64,000 nt of DNA from Macrostomum lignano. Lineage: Eukaryota. This document shows positions 43,072 through 63,057 of this stretch, in pieces (the stretch's first letter is position 1; each line of letters begins with the position of its first letter). The notes under the pieces are model-generated. The model ran no database searches, had not been told where the DNA came from, and was given only the letters and a program-made list of their open reading frames with translations. Made by a program: the position numbers and the translations under genes. Location of the stretch: assembly GCA_002269645.1 (NCBI GenBank), contig NIVC01000691.1, positions 62,001-126,000 of the forward strand. The letters run 5' to 3'.

Positions 43072-43790
43072 CATTAATTCAGCAATGGCTTACGGGTTTT
43101 TTCGATCTGCCGCCCGCATGGCAGCCCGGCAGGTCCCAGGCCGGCCCTCGTGGGACAGCAGAAAGCGGCACAGGGCCATGGGGCAGAGACAATGGAAGCA
43201 GCTCGCAGACAATAGCAGATCAGCGAAGAGTGGATTCTACCCCCCCCCCCGGCTTGAGCTATCTCTAGAGAGGATGCCGCTCGGCTCAGCTGAGTGGAGT
43301 CTGAGCAACAATCACAGCCGTAGCTGCTCGGGCACTCAGAGGGCCATTTTCAATTTCATTTCAACAGGCGAGCAGGCGGGGAGCCCTCATCATGCCGCCC
43401 CAGCCTCCTCTGCCCATTCTTTTTCCCTGGCCACTCATGTATGCAATTTTTCTGCTTTTTTACTGAGCCTTTTTCCAGCTCTGCATTTTTTGTCAGGTCC
43501 TTTGCCCTGATCCGCGGTGAATTTTAAGCAGCTGGGATAATGCCAGCGATGGCTGATTTGATTGATTCAAGCCCAAGCATAGTGGCGATCGCATCTGCAT
43601 GGAGGGGATTCTGATTGCTCAGTTTGAAAATTGAATAATTTTATCATATCTGAGAATACGTGACCTCTTTGTTTGCTTTGCTTACCGGGAGGAAACAGGT
43701 TATACCTGTTTAGTTTCACTTTACATTTTCAGCTAATTTTTTCTCTTCAATTTCTGTTGAGTTGCACCGGTTTAAATCTCTTCCCCACAG

Positions 43791-43934
43791 AGATTGCGGA
43801 CGCTTCTGCGGTCTTGAAGTCTTCGAACTCTAACGTGATGACGACTCAATCCAGCAGTCAGCAGCAGGGACCGTCTGAGTCGCTCACGGAGAGCAAGGAT
43901 GCCTGGACCAGCACCCGAGGCTGTGTGGACTCAA
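43791..43934 (+). CDS. BCL11: BCL11 exon 2 (predicted)
   Basis: Acceptor TTCCCCACAG|AG completes Glu (G|AG) in frame with exon 1; donor TCA A|GTGAGT at 43935. Confidence 0.6.
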
Positions 43935-43942
43935 GTGAGTCA

Positions 43943-44270
43943 AAGGGGAACAGAGGGGAACAGAGGGGAACAGAGGGGAACAGAGGGGAACAGAGGGGAA
44001 CAGAGGGGAACAGAGGGGAACAGAGGGGAACAGAGGGGAAGAGAGGGGAACAGAGGGAACAGAGGGGAACAGAGGGGAACAGAGGGGAAGAGAGGGGAAC
44101 AGAGGGGAACAGAGGGGAACAGAGGGGAACAGAGGGGAACAGAGGGGAACAGAGGGGAACAGAGGAGAACAGAGGGGAACTGTGGGGAACAGAGGGGAAC
44201 AGAGGGGGAGAGAGGGGAACAGAGGGGAACAGTGGGGAACAGAGGGGAACAGAGGGGAACAGAGGGGAAA
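43943..44270. repeat. 10-bp GAGGGGAACA minisatellite in predicted BCL11 intron 2
   Basis: About 33 tandem units between the GTGAGT donor (43935) and the CTCACCCTCCAG acceptor (44366). Confidence 0.9.
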
Positions 44271-44366
44271 GAAGTGTAGTTGGGTGTGCGGAGAGGCGAG
44301 AGGGAGCAGAGGCACATTCATGCATGTTACACAGACAAAGATGCAAGCCGCCAACTCACCCTCCAG

Positions 44367-45508
44367 CCCCTGGCAACGCAGCGGACCCGGCAGCCGGAGG
44401 TCAACAGTTGGACGAACCCAGCAGTTTCGTGTGCCGCAAATGCCTGTGCAGCTACCGGAGCGCCTGGCAGCTGCTGCAGCATGCCCAGTCCCAGCACCGG
44501 CTGGATATCTTCCTGTCCTCGGGAGAGGGCATCGCTGCCGCAACGGAAACCGCTTCAACGACAAGCTCCTCGCCGCTGGCGCACTCGCCACCACCGCCGC
44601 CGCCGCTGCAACAGCATCCCGAGAAGCGGCGTCTGGCGCTCCAGGCCGGTCTGTTCGACCCGAGCCTGATGCTGCCGCCGCCGCCGAGGCCGCTGCCGAT
44701 GCCACCGCCGCCGCCGCCTCCACCGACCAGCTCGAGTCTGCTGTCATCGGCTGCCGCATTCTACGCTGCCAGATCGCCCTACAGTCCCCACTGCTGGCAC
44801 CCAGCCGTCACGGCTGCTATGGCGGCCGCCATGGCGGCTTCCGCGGCGGCCAAGCGGCCGAGGCTGGATTTCGATGGTCCTCAGCAGCAGCAGCAGCTGC
44901 CTCTGCCGCTGCCGCTGCCACCACCGCAGCTCTGGCGACGCAGCTCGGTGGTACCGCCGCCGCCGCCGCTGCCTCCGCCGCCGCTCCTGCCGCCAGCCCT
45001 GTCTCCGGCCGGACCTCCAGCCTCAAGCGTATCTCAAGCCGCTGCACCGCCGACTTCCTCTGTGTCGCTACCGACAGCGGCTGTCGATATTGATTCTGGA
45101 AATGCTAAAAACGCCAAGAACCTAAGCAGCAGCAGCAGCAGCAGCAACAAGAACAATCAACCTGCCTCAACTGCAGACGCCGACGCCATCGCAGCAACAC
45201 CGTCGCCGACAAAGTCTCGACGCAGCGACACCTGCGAGTTCTGCGGCAAAGTGTTCAAGAACTGCTCGAACCTGACTGTGCACAGGCGGAGCCACACGGG
45301 TGAGAAGCCGTACAGCTGCCGGCTGTGCAGCTACGCCTGCGCGCAGAGCAGCAAGCTGACGCGGCACATGAAGACGCACGGCGGCAAGAGCGCCGCTGCG
45401 CACGTGTGCACCCGATGCCGCACGCCGTTCAGCGTTGCCAGCACTCTCGAGAAGCACCTGCGCAAGTGCCAAGCCGATGGAACTGACGACGTCCCAGAAG
45501 CCAATTGA
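44367..45508 (+). CDS. BCL11: BCL11 exon 3: ZF1 and the three C-terminal C2H2 fingers
   Basis: [29 protein letters not shown] and [58 protein letters not shown] are near-identical to BCL11A/B motifs; AATAAA near 45712. Confidence 0.92.
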
Positions 45509-53432: not shown

Positions 53433-55756
53433 ATGACGGCCCATCAGCCGCCTCCGGTCACATCAGGGCGACCTCTCAGCCCACCTGAGCCGCCGCAGTT
53501 CGAGTCGGTGCTCGAGTCGCTCGAGTCGGGAGACTGCGGCCTCCTCAGTGAGTGGCGGGCAGGACTTTCTCGGCAGGTCCTTGCTGCACGTCGCCAGCTT
53601 TCTAAGAAACGCAGAGGCCGCGCGGCTGCTCGTGGAGGCCTCTGCGAACGTCAACCTGGCCGCAGCTGACGGCTCTACGCCGCTGCACTGTGCCGTCCTC
53701 GGCAGCAGCGAGCGACTGACGCGGCTGCTGGCTGCTGCGAGCCGGAGCGAGTCCAGCCGTCCGGACGGGGACGGACCGACCTGCGCTGCCACCGACAGCC
53801 GTCAGGAGCCGCCACCGGTCTCGGGAGCCGCCGTCCCGCTGCCGACTTCGCTGTTTCTGTGCGTCCTGCACGGCCGGGCTGGCGTTGTGGACGTTCTGAC
53901 GGGCAATGTCGAAATCGTTCGAATATTGCTGAGTGCCGCTGCAGATCCCGACAGGCGGAACCCGAACTGCCCTCGTGGTTCAGCTCCACTGCATGAGGCT
54001 GAACAATTTGGGAACATTGACGTCATGAGCCAGCTGATTAGCGCAGGTGTGAATACCGAAATTACGGATGAAGAAGGCTTCACTCCTGTTCACCGTGCGG
54101 CAGAAAGCAACTTGAGCACTGAGACAGCCGCAGTTCTCACCAAAGCCGGAGCCAATGTTGATTAATCTCCAGAAAGGTTAGATAATCGTTTAAAGTATTT
54201 TTATTTCGCAGTCTGGTCTTATTATAAGGAGGACGTGAAGCGGAATATCGCCGCTGCACACTGCAGTTCGTAAAGGAAGAGCAGAGCTGGTTGCCATGCT
54301 GCTCAGAGCTGGAGCCAGGGTCGACCTGCTGAACAGCAATGGCCGAACTCCCCTGGCATTGGCTGTTTATATGAAAAACTCCGGAGATCGTCCGGAGAGC
54401 TGATTCGAGCTGGAGCTTCAGCCGATATGAGCAGCGATAACAACTAGGATTTGGTCAAGCAGGCAATCGAGCGTCGGTAGCTGTCCATGGCTCGGATGCT
54501 GATTGAGGCTTCTGCAGACATCGATGGAAAAAACAGCTTAGAGTGGTTTATAGTTGCCTAAGCAGCTGGGTTCACAGAGGCGGTGCAACTTCTGATCGAT
54601 GCTGGTGTCAGCTGGGATCAGCCAGGACCGATGGTCTTCACGCTGTCGTTGTTTACTATGATGCTTCCAGGCAATGACTCAGTCAGAGAATTTTTAATTG
54701 CTGCTGGAGCGGAATCGCCACCAGATGCGATTAAGATATTTTTTCTGCATTCTTCTCAGCCCCTATATCGCAGCGCCGACCGTCCGGTCAGCGGAGGAGC
54801 AGCGCCAGGAGCAGCTCGCGGCTGTCCGAAGCCATGCGAGCCGCCGGGTTCAAGCAGGCCAACGCGGCAGTTCAGAGCGGCGCTGCAGGACATCCTGAGA
54901 CACCCGATGGATTACAACGACTTCTTTATGTTCGGTAGCTTCGCAGACGGGTGGGGCAGCAGCCTGGAGACTCTGAACGGGGAGATCAGCTGGGACTCCG
55001 ACATTGACGTCACCTTCATTGAGTCCGATAGACTGTCAGAGCTGCTGCAGCTGATCGGTGAGCTGCCAGACTGCGCCAGATTAGCCAGAGAGAGCCTCAG
55101 GTTGATGGCGCATCTCAAAGTCGGAGCACCGCTGGATGCGGCCGGTGCTGCAGCAGGACTGACGGGCCAGGAGAGCAGCGGCATCGAGTGTCCGGAGAGT
55201 CCTGGCGGAGGCAGCGAGCTGCTGTCGGTAGGCGAGGCGAAGGAGCTCGTGTGGCGGCACCTGGAGGAGACCGACTCCGCCGCAGTGCTTCAGTTTGTGT
55301 TTGAAGAAAGTCTGGATTTTAGATTTCTGCCGTCTCGCGTCAAGAAAATATTCAGGATTATCTTGTGAGACAGTTTTGCACCTGAATATGGCCGGTTGCT
55401 GATTCTCCCAGTAGATTTTAGAAAACTTCTGGCGAGTCTGGCTGCTCAGGATGAGGCAGCTTCAACTTCATACAGGCATTTTTGGCGCAAAGTCATGAAC
55501 TCGTACGCAATTCGAATCTGAATAATATTTTAACAAATTTATTTTGCAAATTCAATTTAGCCTTGTAAAGTTCCAGTAGTTGTTAATCCTTGAAATTGTC
55601 AGTAAAGTGTGAATTTCACTGTTGTACTTTTGCGACCTAAACCTAACCACGGAGCTGCTGCCCATGGCGCTGGATGCAGTTGAGAGGCTGAGATCCGAAG
55701 ATGAAGCTGGCGTGGTGCAGCAGCTGCTCGGGCCGCAAGAGGATGCTGAGGGCTGA
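53433..55756 (+). pseudogene. Decayed ankyrin-repeat + nucleotidyltransferase (Mab21/cGLR-like) gene nested antisense in GPCR intron 2
   Basis: Multiple ankyrin repeats (GSTPLHCA, GSAPLHEA, GFTPVHRA, GRTPLALA); frameshifts near 53565 and 54385; in-frame stops at 54445, 54478 and 54559; FMFGSFADGWG...DSDIDV NTase motif at ~54925-55011. Confidence 0.7.
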
Positions 55757-58193: not shown

Positions 58194-59864
58194 CTGCAAT
58201 AAGGGCCATGGGGAGCGGTTTGAGGAATGTAGTGTGAGCATCTTTGCGTGTATTTTGTTGTAAATTGACTGCATTAGTTTCTATATTGTTATTGAATTGT
58301 TATTTTGCTTTAGTTTAGTCATACGTTTTTGGTGTACTTTTTCCTTGTTAGTTAGAATCAATTTTGTAAACAGGTTAGAGTTAGACGCCAAATTTGTGAC
58401 TCAGCGGAGGGTTGAGTTTGTCTGCGAACCCCAGCTTGCGCGGTCAGCCAATCAGAACCGGCCTGGACCCTGGCACGCGGCAAGTTTCAATTCTACCCGG
58501 CGCGCGGGCACAGTGCAAATCGGCTTATCGAGCGGCCGGCCAGACGACCACCACCCGGCTTGAGGGGGGTTTTGGGGGTTGTGACTCTGACTATATATGA
58601 AAGTGTGTTTTGGCAATCGGATCTCGCCTCTCTCCTTCTCGCCTCTCTTTCCCCGGTTTTGTTTGTCCAGCTTCCCGGCCGGTGGCCTGTTTCCCTTGAT
58701 TCGCGCTTTGAGGCGTTTTGATTTCATCACCCCGGTCCATATCTTTGTCCCCGCCCAACCGCAGTAGTCTTGTGACGTAACGTCTACGGCAAATTCCTGT
58801 CTGAAGTCGTCGCTATCAAGCGCGGTTAGATAGAGACTGTCGGATCTGATCAAGTACGCGGCCTCGATACGAGGGCCTCAGTGTTACACTGAAGGGCAGT
58901 GCCGATAGAATTTAGTCGGTACTCCGTTGAACGGTCGATTCGGCAGGGCTCTCGTTGAGAGTAGGTTCTGGTTTAGGCCAGGGTTAGGAGTCTTTCTCCA
59001 TGGTCCTGTGTTCGGTGCCTCCTTCTTCTTCTTCTTCAGCTGAGATCCGCTTGTCAGTGCGTATATAGTCATTATTTATTAATCGTTATTATTCGTTATC
59101 ATCAGTCTAATTATCTGCGCCGCAAATTTGTTTGAATCTTGTAACTCAGCTAATCAAATTAAACCGTCAATCAAGTTAGCTATTCTTGAAATAGGATTAT
59201 CACTCTCTAATCTTTCGGTTTGTGTTCCCTCGTGTTCTTTATTTTCTTGTACTGTACCTGCGGCTATTGGAGAAGACTGGTAGAACTCGCCGACCGGCGA
59301 TAGGCGATTAGGATTAATAGCTTTAAAATCTCTGACGCTCCAAGTAGGTTTGTCTAGGGCCTAACTAATTGCTCACCGTGCATGCTATTATCTAATTGCC
59401 TATTTCATCACAGGAAGGTGCGTTACGAGCGTATGTGCTCAGTCATTTTTAGACTTCGATTTGGTCATGACTAGCTTACATTTAGGTCATACGACTTTAA
59501 TTCGGTCATAACTGGTTTAGGTCATCTGATTTTGATAGATTTTGATTTTTATTTTAAATAGTTTAGGTCAGTAGTAATATACCATACAAAATTGCCAGCA
59601 AACCATTCTCATAAACCAAATGATTTTAACCCTTTATCAGTGTGAAATGGCTCATTTGACTCAAAGTCATTCGACTTTCGCTCCGCTCATCCTCGCTTCA
59701 TTTCGGTCAATCAACTCATTTCACACTTACAACGGTTAATTCTCTTTGAATTCTGAGAATACGCTCTGCTCTCGTCGTTCGCTTTGGTTTGCTGGCAATT
59801 TTGGCTGTTTAAATTGGCCTGGTTTAAATATCAGGCATTTTATAGAATAAAATTTATATAATAT

Positions 59865-60762
59865 TTATTCGAGATCTGCTTTCGGCAACAGTAGTCCACT
59901 GCCCATAACGTTTGCATTTAAGAAGATTCCAGAACCTGCTTTTGGTCGCATCTCGAGATATAATCCGCTTCCGTCATGTTTTTCAATGATGTTAAAATCT
60001 TTTCCTAATTTATTAAAAATCTTCTGAACGGCTGGTCTAAAATTGGCTCCAATATTGTCAAAAAATCCTTTAGCTTTCTCACTCGTTTTTTTTAAAGTTT
60101 GCCCAAACTCGTGTAGTTTATCCGCGAAAACTCCGCTTCCGTGGGTTGATCCTTGTAAGATTAAACCTTTTCCCGACGCTAACCTAGCTTCTGCATTTCT
60201 TTTTTGTGCTGGTGTTGCTGAACTACTATTAATAGTGTCTATGAGTTTCTGTTTGAATTGAGCATCCTGCGTTATTTGCTGTCTTTGAAATTCAGCATCT
60301 CGTTTAGCTTTTTCATCCGCAGCTTTTTTTTGCAAAAATTATTGGGAGCAAAGTTGCAAGTGGAGGTATACCCCCTTGTTTTGCTTTTAATTCTGCTAAC
60401 TGTTTTCGATAATCATGAATTCTTTTTCCTGCTAAACCGGCTGCTCCTGCTGCCCCAAGTCCTAAAAGAATTGGTAGAATGGGTAGTAATCCACCATCTT
60501 TTTTTATGTGGGTCTCCAATAAAAATTTCACATCAGAGTCTGTTAGCCGATAATTTTTACCACGGTTGTTAAAGGATATTGGCCTTCCTTCTTGTGCATA
60601 TTTTGAAGCAAGTTTAAATGTATCAATGTCGTAGTCAAGTTTTTTGCCTAAGCGATCCAATCTTTTCAACATTGCGTGGCTGTGTTTATTATCATCTAAA
60701 TCTAAAGTGTCTACAACCTCTGCTATAAAATATGGCCGATTTTCGTCATTAACTGAGTCCAT
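59865..60762 (-). CDS. Polinton/adenovirus pX(mu)-like core protein ORF, split by a 1-bp frameshift in an A8 run (~298 aa if corrected)
   Basis: KKDGGLLPILPILLGLGAAGAAGLAG..KQLAELK..GGIPPL, then AKKAADEKAKRDAEFQRQQ and repeated GKGL/GSGL/GSGI motifs. Confidence 0.65.
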
Positions 60763-60772
60763 TTTTATATTG

Positions 60773-61045
60773 TTAAAATTTCTTTAATCCTTTTCCGCCT
60801 TTTATTGTGGTTAACACTTTATTAAAATCCTGACTATCTTTATTGCAATAAAGCAATTCTGTTGGTTGTGCGTCTTGGGTTGCTTCCTGTGCTAGTTTCA
60901 AATCTTTTATTGCTTTTATTTGTGAGAGGGTGTCGTTAAATTCCCTCAATTTCTTTAGTTATTCTGCTGCTCTCGCTGCTTCGATTCCGCCCTTTATTTT
61001 TAGTAACAGAAAAAGAGACGAAGTGGAGGCACAATAGGTTGGGGT
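60773..61045 (-). pseudogene. Degenerate Polinton-type small ORF with two IKGG motifs
   Basis: KIKGGIEAARAAE*LKKLREF...LTTIKGGKGLKKF*; internal TAA at 60959-60961; ends 11 bp before the next ATG. Confidence 0.4.
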
Positions 61046-61535
61046 AGAATTGGAGCTTTTCTTTTAGAATGGCGCTTTTCTTTATAATTACAAAGATTGG
61101 CGCTAGTTGTGTTGCTGCCTTTCTCTCTATAAAGGAACAATGGGTGGTAAGAGAAAAGAGACGAATTATAACTTATGAATGGGCCAGTATGAAGTTTCAT
61201 ACTACAGAAAAAGACCCTTGGCGCCTGCGGCGCGGCCTGGGGTTACAGAGTGCTTGTGTGTGTTAGGGAGAGTTTGAGTACCATACAAAATTGCCAGCAA
61301 ACCAAAGCGAACGATGAGAGCAGAGCGTATTCTCAGAATTCAAAGAGAATTAATCGTTGTAAGTGTGAAATGAGTTGATTGACCGAAATGAAGCGGAGGA
61401 TGAGCGGAGCGAGTTGAGCGGAGTGAAGACGAGCGGTAATGAAAGGGAAATGAGCCATTTCACACTGATAAAGGGTTAAAATCATTTGATTTATGAGAAC
61501 GGTTTGCTGGCAATTTTGTATGGTATATTACTACT

Positions 61536-61820
61536 TAGGTCATACAGTTTTGATTCGGTCATAAATAGTTTAGGTCATAAGATTTAGATTCGGTCATACG
61601 AGTAACTGGTTTAGGTCATACGATTTCGATTCTGTCATAGATAGCTAAGGTCATGTGATTTGTATTTGGTCATAAATAGTTTAGGTCATAGTTTAGGTTT
61701 ACGATTTCGATTCGGTCATAGATAGCTAAGGTCATGTGATTTGTATTTGGTCATAAACAGTTTAGGTCATAGTTTAGGTTTAAGATTTCGATTCGGTCAT
61801 GTCTATTCTAAGGTCATTTG
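61536..61820. repeat. Degenerate TAGGTCATA/TTCGGTCATA tandem array, continuing at 59460-59569 on the other side of the Polinton
   Basis: Repeated ttaggtcata and ttcggtcata words on both flanks. Confidence 0.75.
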
Positions 61821-61828
61821 ACTCCCAC

Positions 61829-62184
61829 CTGACAATGGAAAGCAGCCGAACCACGGACAGAGCCACCAGCAGCCACAGCGCCAGGTCGCAAAACAGGTAC
61901 ACTGCAAAAGTGTGAATCTTGCAGGCGGCCAAGCCGATGCTTCGAATGTCGAAGTCTATCAGCAGCCTCTGCCAGTACCTGAGCACAGCGGTGAGCAGTA
62001 CGGCTGCATCGGCGGCTGCAAGGCAGATAAAAAACCTGCGAGTGTTCGCGCTGGCCAGACTGGGGAATCGCCAGAACACCGCGGCAGAGGCCAAGTGGCC
62101 AGCCAAGCCGCCGAACAGCAGGATGGTCAGGTAGACTTGGTAGATCCGCTTGGCAACGTCCTGGTGCTGCTCGATTGAGGCCAT
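61829..62184 (-). CDS. GPCR exon 1: TM1-TM3
   Basis: ATG at 62184; ILLFGGLAGHLAS (TM1), FFICLAAADAAVLL (TM2 LAxAD), ACKIHTF..LWLLVALSVVRL (TM3); donor GTC AG|GTGGGA (phase 2). Exons sum to 356+382+309 = 1047 nt = 348 aa + stop. Confidence 0.85.
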
Positions 62185-63057
62185 GCCAGACAGACAGAGT
62201 TTTCTGGGTTCTTTGCCAACACCTCTAAAAGCAGATCTGCAGAGAGCAGATCTCAGGTAAATTATACCCTATGGGATTTCTATAGGGGGGAGATCTCTCT
62301 CCCTATCGTGATTGGATTCCTCATCTAGACCACTCCCCACCGATGGGTTCACCTCGGGTGAGCGCAGACTGCAAGGCTCCGCAATTCTCTCTCGCGCATC
62401 CCTGCCTCAGCGTCTCTTGACTTAATTGCCAGGTATATTGCCCGAGAACTGCCTGCTAGCTTCGACGGGGAAGAGAGAGAGTGAGTGGAAGAATCAACGC
62501 TTTCGACAAGAAGAGCTCGCTCGGACACGAAATACAGCGGCAGTAGCGAATTTGAACTCTGTGGCCTCGGTGACCTCGAATAGTCACGGATTTTATTGGA
62601 GGAGTAGACTGTGCCGATTTCTCATTTCTGTGAACTGCTCGATTTCATTATCGCACCAGTTTTAACGAGGTTACTGCGAGGGGTGTACTGAAACTGTCTC
62701 CGAAAGTAGAACGTAAACTTTCAATAAAAATGCTACTGTGTAATACCATGGCAATAGAGTCACGGTTTGAAAATTTCATTGGGAGTGAGTACTGCTTGAT
62801 ACTCGTAGCTGGCTATGTTGACTTTGAAGAGCACAGAGACTGAAAATTCATACTCAAGCATCTGAAACGTGGTAGAGCTTGAGACAGCAAAGTTACATGA
62901 AGTCAACACGTTTTTGAAGTTCTAACGTCTTTAGTTTGTTCTTTTGTTTGCTTGCAGTCACCATGGATTTTTTGGTGGGGAGACAAAGCCAAGAATTCTA
63001 TATGTGCATGTTAATGACTAAATTGTGTGCTCACATTATTTTTAGAATTGGTGTTGT

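Follow-up and report, generated by a model that had tools for sequence, protein, structure and literature searches.

A single deleted Polinton of 2 kb in Macrostomum lignano, probably cut down after insertion

Short, non-autonomous Polintons are a known class: Kapitonov and Jurka reportedly described them in 2006, the "N" in a Repbase Polinton name stands for non-autonomous, and the Repbase families so named are multi-copy. Polinton-1N1_DR and Polinton-N1A_NV are Repbase names that occur in the available text of PMC9341505 and PMC11296320. Polintons, also called Mavericks or adintoviruses, have AGT-repeat ends, long inverted repeats and a 6-bp duplication; intact vertebrate elements measure 12.7-24.6 kb, and 96% of vertebrate loci are degraded (PMC8097293, in the parts available). 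For the Polinton remnants of C. elegans, the accessible text of 10.1101/2024.01.15.575659 leaves open whether they were partial at transposition or were deleted later. Accessory genes resembling pX have been reported in adintoviruses (available text of PMC8502044), and further background on Polintons is given in the accessible portions of PMC3014272, PMC5499653, PMC11161782, PMC5753468, PMC8504770 and 10.1101/2024.03.25.586562.

The element described here lies in a 64,000-nucleotide stretch of the Macrostomum lignano genome (the window: the whole stretch that was analyzed). Like described Polintons, it has AGT-repeat ends, long inverted repeats and a 6-bp duplication, and its long relatives encode a pPolB polymerase, an rve integrase, an A32 ATPase and a double jelly-roll capsid. 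It differs from intact Polintons in being only 1,966 bp long and without the core enzymes. It is a deleted, non-autonomous Polinton derivative that has no pPolB or integrase of its own, a classification already made in a first-pass annotation of the window and borne out by the termini, the 6-bp duplications of the family and the long relatives. In the literature searched, which was mostly non-subscription and without supplements, we found no description of defective-interfering Polintons or of this element.

Structure of the 2-kb element

The element occupies positions 59570-61535 of the window; it starts with AGTAGT and finishes with ACTACT, as read directly from the sequence. Copies of TAGGTC flank it on the plus strand at 59564-59569, inside a host minisatellite, and at 61536-61541. 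Because the hexamer recurs in that minisatellite (three times on the left and five on the right), the duplication alone is weaker evidence. For the family as a whole the 6-bp duplications are real, since they are perfect at 19 of the 21 two-ended loci and since the empty alleles of C1040, a short copy described below, contain the hexamer once. The ends, the terminal repeats of 234 and 250 bp and the TAGGTC duplication had been proposed by the first-pass annotation, together with 6-bp duplications at other copies; all were found.

The left terminal inverted repeat (59570-59803, plus strand, 234 bp) has been shortened by the large deletion; among relatives the match in this region spans about 330-370 bp. 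The right repeat (61286-61535, minus strand) has 250 bases. Bases 1-234 and 1717-1966 of the element are 88.4% identical, the differences being mainly one rearranged patch in the left repeat and a few substitutions. Both repeats contain an internal inverted copy of bases 11-35 and are predicted to fold into a hairpin (z -7.4, with 0 of 200 shuffles as stable), the arms of which are 61279-61303 and 61501-61525 in the right repeat. Each terminal repeat as a whole forms a hairpin of about 255 bases (61279-61535 in the window). Both Polinton termini, the predicted replication origins, are retained.

Read from its right end, the element consists of the repeat, a spacer, a small gene, a pX-like gene, a second spacer, the ATG of the putative polymerase start, a filler and the far repeat, an order that is collinear with one end of long Polinton copies. 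The closest long copy among the 40 of 221 candidates scored is G000:C1197, which matches block by block at 91, 96, 86, 94 and 92%; the subterminal non-coding DNA (60996-61285) is 96% identical to it, and no long copy among these best 40 of 221 exceeded 96%. The second spacer (59836-59864, minus strand) runs up to an ATG at 59838-59836 that in long copies opens the putative N-terminal part of the polymerase. The large deletion junction is occupied by a 32-base filler (59804-59835) that does not align to long copies, and past it only the last 234 bases of the opposite repeat remain. No template for this filler was recognized: its longest matches, 12 bases in seven long copies and 8 bases in the flanks, are both chance-like, and against the flanks no match was significant, 46 of 295 tiles matching equally well. 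A second patch, of 20 bases, lies in the left repeat (59658-59677, plus strand); it is absent from all other loci compared and is likely a repair filler made in place. It matches the left host flank, 170 bases off, at 11 of 12 bases, a match equaled by none of 295 tiles from the window and by 2 of 86 from Polintons in a comparison that was post hoc (the match had been spotted by eye beforehand) and one of four settings tried. Rfam gave no match within 59000-62200.

What remains of the genes? The longest open frames in the element have 156 and 157 codons, both on the minus strand, and Pfam searches with the window's own ORFs gave no informative match inside the element and no Adeno_PX. Comparison with relatives, in which the small gene encodes 136 residues and the pX-like gene about 320-330, revealed two broken genes. 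The pX-like gene is split on the minus strand into a 5' fragment (60331-60762), corresponding to residues 1-142 of an unbroken 328-residue relative, and a 3' fragment (59865-60329), corresponding to residues 164-328 and containing GxGLxL repeats. Residues 143-163 are gone and the frame changes there; the break, near 60330, falls inside an Adeno_PX-like stretch (residues 117-158 of the relative). The whole pX-like gene aligns unbroken at 25 of 47 other loci, some of which are alleles of one another. The small IKGG gene survives as a 3' remnant (60773-60995, minus strand; 136 residues in relatives) that has lost its first 57 codons, including the start; 55 and 47 codons are missing on the two other contigs that carry the element. 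The size of this deletion varies across the three contigs (+14 and +46 bases), a variation that could partly reflect assembly errors, and another 82 bases are missing from one contig of short-read run X1. Neither gene is intact on any of the three contigs.

In unbroken relatives, the pX-like protein has two hydrophobic stretches, each preceded by xGG, and matches PF05829 at E 1e-4, its 22 bits falling short of the 25-bit cut-off. Its Atlas cluster at 0.89 has 20% Adeno_PX members, a lead only. Against the PDB, a PX chain appeared only at E 4, and all sequence matches (E of at least 0.025) were treated as noise. The fold model reached pLDDT 46 and had no BFVD match at E <= 0.001, and a homologue search returned four unnamed proteins at 42-56%. 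The small gene found no support in Pfam, Atlas or the PDB. Its protein contains VKGG and IKGG, which fit the adenovirus protease motif, and it may resemble pVI or cupiennin.

When a set of 14 long-copy ORFs was compared with the element, only the two end genes matched (2/14). The element accordingly has no polymerase, integrase, ATPase, protease or capsid gene, as the first-pass annotation had held. That annotation had also described the interior as small pX-like and IKGG-containing ORFs; these ORFs are fragments of two broken genes. These core-type genes are present because they adjoin the surviving end. We conclude that the 2-kb element likely encodes no functional protein and has no present activity.

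One locus and its host site

Among the matches listed, the full element was matched at 97-100% in three places. The flanks of these three matches are 98% identical over 11.6 and 14.8 kb; hence they represent one insertion assembled three times. The junction pattern, with up to two mismatches allowed, turned up nowhere else. A longer allele was not seen at the site, all three contigs carrying the short form. A family of identical miniature elements was rejected, the three matches being one locus with a unique junction, and the same deleted structure, which an amplified non-autonomous (MITE-like) family should show at several independent sites, was found at this one only. The first-pass annotation had set a one-off internal deletion against its own proposal, and a single insertion with a unique junction is largely that.

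Both ends and the filler also appear in short-read contigs that come from independent studies. In run X1 one contig reads through the filler (59782-59908); the left end is bridged in X2 and X3 and the right end in X3, where the short sides of the contigs are 27 and 30 bases, just under the 31 bases that our bridging rule for short-read contigs demands. Among the joints listed for contigs of four runs none belonged to an empty site, which is no evidence on how often the site is occupied.

The host site was proposed to be a GPCR intron. An upstream ORF at 61783-62268 matches 7tm_1 at E 8.6e-5, below the cut-off, and 61829-62268 (minus strand) probably forms exon 1 of a gene for a rhodopsin-type GPCR. 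The GT at 61828 agrees in phase with the AG at 58162-58161, and the ORF downstream of the predicted intron had no Pfam match. It is plausible that the element sits in a GPCR intron spanning 61828-58161: the weak 7tm_1 match and the phased GT and AG speak for the proposal.

Several other features of the window were observed. Left of the element, 59000-59430 is a repeat of very high depth in all four runs, probably another mobile element in the same intron. About six long RBR E3 ligase genes, each a single ORF, stand in tandem at 4118-34155 (minus strand); the two genes tested match E3_UbLigase_RBR and IBR, and one also matches UBA_HOIP. A C2H2 zinc-finger gene lies at 43664-45508 and an ankyrin-repeat ORF at 53437-54165, both on the plus strand.

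The parent family and its other short copies

We searched the M. lignano genome (764 Mb in 5,269 contigs) with the element and obtained at least 139 matches, the best 40 of 340 candidates having been scored. A search for terminal patterns found 53 ends of the element's repeat type and 19 ends of a second type. Long two-ended copies measure 17-32 kb. The long relatives encode a protein-primed polymerase, pPolB (PF03175, E 6e-16), an rve integrase (E 1e-6, below the cut-off) and a Pox_A32 ATPase above the cut-off. The low-confidence model (pLDDT 52) of a 490-residue protein matches the double jelly-roll capsids of iridovirus, mavirus and Sputnik, with E values between 4e-9 and 4e-8 and low TM; its ORF was taken from a copy of the second repeat type and is fully covered in C734 and C1197. 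Candidates of 175 and 261 residues had no Pfam match, and the 175-residue protein had no PDB match; we presume them to be the protease and minor capsid by position and motifs only. The first-pass annotation had predicted long Polintons with related terminal repeats, and copies with polymerase, integrase, ATPase and capsid are indeed in the genome.

The long copies showed further variety. Two very different polymerases stand on virion modules that are 85-90% identical (L094:3471-7442 versus L033:3336-6077). In 6 of 6 readable long copies of the second repeat type there is no DNA similarity across the polymerase region, and translation of one of them showed polymerase motifs together with an endonuclease VII domain; all 15 first-type copies that reach the polymerase region match the other polymerase. 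Repeat type thus tracks polymerase type in M. lignano. Polymerase swaps are known in nematode Polintons, where the repeats are conserved (10.1101/2023.08.22.554363, in the text available). The second-type repeat also forms a hairpin and reads AGTAGT...ACTACT across 265-290 bases. A parvovirus-type phospholipase A2-like stretch lies upstream of rve in the integrase frame (L032:5696-6892 and L038:2534-3688); its Pfam matches are E 0.008-0.03, below the cut-off, and a single protein with the integrase is putative. Long copies also carry a galactose-binding F5/8 domain protein (E 2.5e-10, L031:8349-9998), possibly a fibre, and a restriction-endonuclease-like ORF (Eco47II, E 1e-4, below the cut-off, L032:4810-5337).

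Two-ended deleted copies are common: C393 (4,081 bp), C1040 (3,040), C1052 (6,155), C578 (7,815), C181 and C570 (1,654 and 3,062) and C2121 (8,955), besides C87a (7,422 bp) and C52 (about 3 kb), which have no duplication. Breakpoints and cargo differ between them; C393 has the integrase, C1052 part of the polymerase, and C578 and C2121 capsid genes. Open cargo genes shared across the short copies were not found, and in the 2-kb element both end genes are broken. Likely alleles, called by 8-base flanks, are C578 (7,815 bp) and C2173 (242 bp) at one site and C181 (1,654), C570 (3,062) and also C619 at another, while the likely alleles C55 and C600 are without the two genes that C52 keeps. C2173 (L067:939-1180) is a palindromic remnant that mimics a MITE. 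The 7.4-kb element C87a (G000:C87, L087:394-7815) has the two-gene end at both of its ends, inverted flanks and no duplication; it is either a fold-back rearrangement or an assembly artefact.

Two short copies deserve attention. C1040 (L039:466-3505; 3,040 bp) has a GTCCTG duplication, both end genes open and a junction with a 4-base overlap; its site is empty on two allelic contigs, C558 and C2760, with flank identity of 96-99%. C393 (L038:509-4589; 4,081 bp) has an open pX-like gene and an integrase frame, and related sites at 83-84% identity are empty. The junctions of these two other short elements were searched and each is unique. The repeats of both copies show 0 differences in 230 bases. 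C1040 and C393 look young and may have inserted already short. Clean repeats date structural change poorly, however, because C271 and C1197 have 0-1 differences between their repeats and yet contain about 14 kb of extra DNA.

Perhaps short copies preferentially keep the two-gene end? Of six other deleted loci, five retain the sequence up to and including the last part of the pX-like gene; the cut in C2121 runs through that gene. If single deletions fell uniformly, 5 or more of 6 would have P = 0.14, a count that leaves out the 2-kb element itself, C87a and C52 (no duplication), the single-ended C665, C632 and C4756, and the more heavily deleted alleles.

Origin of the short form and comparison with known systems

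We think that the 2-kb element is probably a single deleted relic of an 18-kb Polinton family, cut down after insertion by host repair. A longer copy would have been integrated by the family's integrase, giving the 6-bp duplication. End joining would then have mended double-strand breaks and left a filler of 32 bases at the big junction and one of 20 bases in the left repeat, and the smaller deletions in the two genes would have come later. Junction fillers are a known mark of polymerase-theta-type repair. Given the match between the 20-base patch and the host flank, one or more deletions of the filler type should postdate insertion; that the big deletion did so too is suggested by analogy. 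Deletion in place also appears common in the family, because at other sites the likely alleles are set apart by large deletions. Counting against it are the presence of only the short form at the site (3 of 3 contigs), the lack of a flank match for the 32-base filler, the young look of C1040 and C393 and the end DNA retained by five of the six deleted loci.

Perhaps the element was already short when it inserted? A long copy would have been deleted during extrachromosomal replication, and the short genome, with both origins, would have been copied and integrated once, in trans, by a long copy's proteins and would have decayed later; the element would be a fossil defective genome that owes its two genes to their position or to a cis-signal close to that end. 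Both termini and the duplication are intact in the 2-kb element, long copies with the same end type are present, and C1040 is polymorphic, its repeats being perfect, its end genes open and its junction marked by a 4-base overlap. Insect Polintons without polB are apparently still mobile (10.1101/2025.02.07.637071, in the text available). However, none of the short forms was found at a second site (all three junctions tested are unique), the bias toward the two-gene end is not significant and C2121 cuts the pX-like gene. Moreover, perfect repeats are compatible with later rearrangement, as in C271 and C1197, and no long copy among the best 40 of 221 candidates is closer to the element than 96%. 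We therefore hold this origin to be a tentative second possibility for the 2-kb element; C1040 is a better candidate for insertion in trans.

A wider proposal builds on the same observations, and on C1040 more than on the 2-kb element. The family may shed defective genomes of 2-4 kb extrachromosomally, which would keep both origins and preferentially the two-gene end, perhaps the site of a packaging signal, and which helpers would integrate and perhaps package. The 2-kb element would be an old fossil of this process and the polymorphic C1040 copy a fresh one. We consider the proposal, its account of these two copies included, doubtful on present evidence.

The first-pass annotation had favored a satellite-like derivative that retains core genes and is mobilized in trans. 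In the strong form of this reading, core-type proteins would be under selection, aiding packaging or interfering with a helper virus. The retained genes do resemble virion core or membrane-active genes (PF05829 and the Atlas lead), and one other short element has both genes open. But in the 2-kb element the genes merely adjoin the kept end, the start of the small gene and part of the pX-like stretch are lost, there is a single insertion with no family and a unique junction, and cargo varies across short elements. Selected cargo in the 2-kb element was rejected, both genes being broken, and we regard a selected satellite as very improbable. Collapse of the two ends of a long element during assembly is scarcely credible: the sequence here is repetitive and none of the short-read contigs covers the element in full, but the same junction stands on three contigs with their own differences, and short-read contigs cross the filler (X1) and the ends (X2 and X3).

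If deletion after insertion is the correct reading, a decayed single copy matters little, most animal Polinton loci being degraded and non-autonomous forms being known already. The 2-kb element is rather a pointer to a rich and recently active Polinton population in the M. lignano genome, in which some short derivatives are young and two types of polymerase accompany a near-identical virion module. Should short copies prove to have been inserted in trans, they would delimit the minimal cis-signals that a Polinton needs to replicate, integrate and be packaged. Shedding of defective genomes, if true, would leave a genomic record of defective-interfering particles from a virus whose virions have hardly been seen.

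How does the element compare with known shortened systems? Like the Repbase non-autonomous Polintons, it combines Polinton ends with an incomplete coding capacity; the Repbase elements form named repeat families, whereas here there is one insertion with a unique junction. It resembles the C. elegans remnants and the insect Polintons without polB in being a partial or deleted copy with inverted repeats. The insect elements are long and present in several similar copies, whereas the M. lignano element is tiny and single (10.1101/2025.02.07.637071, in the available part). The pX-like gene shares with the adintovirus GasderminX, PLA2X and cupiennin genes and with adenovirus pX and pVI a pX-like hydrophobic stretch after xGG and a position near the element's end (PMC8502044, as far as its available text goes). 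Unlike GasderminX, the pX-like protein showed no gasdermin-like domain (model pLDDT 46, no fold match). In contrast to PLA2X, the PLA2-like stretch, a weak Pfam match, is here joined in frame to the integrase and lies upstream of it. Defective-interfering genomes and gutless adenovirus vectors keep both termini and have lost the replication genes. The 2-kb element, known here from its sequence alone, likewise keeps its termini and is without replication genes.
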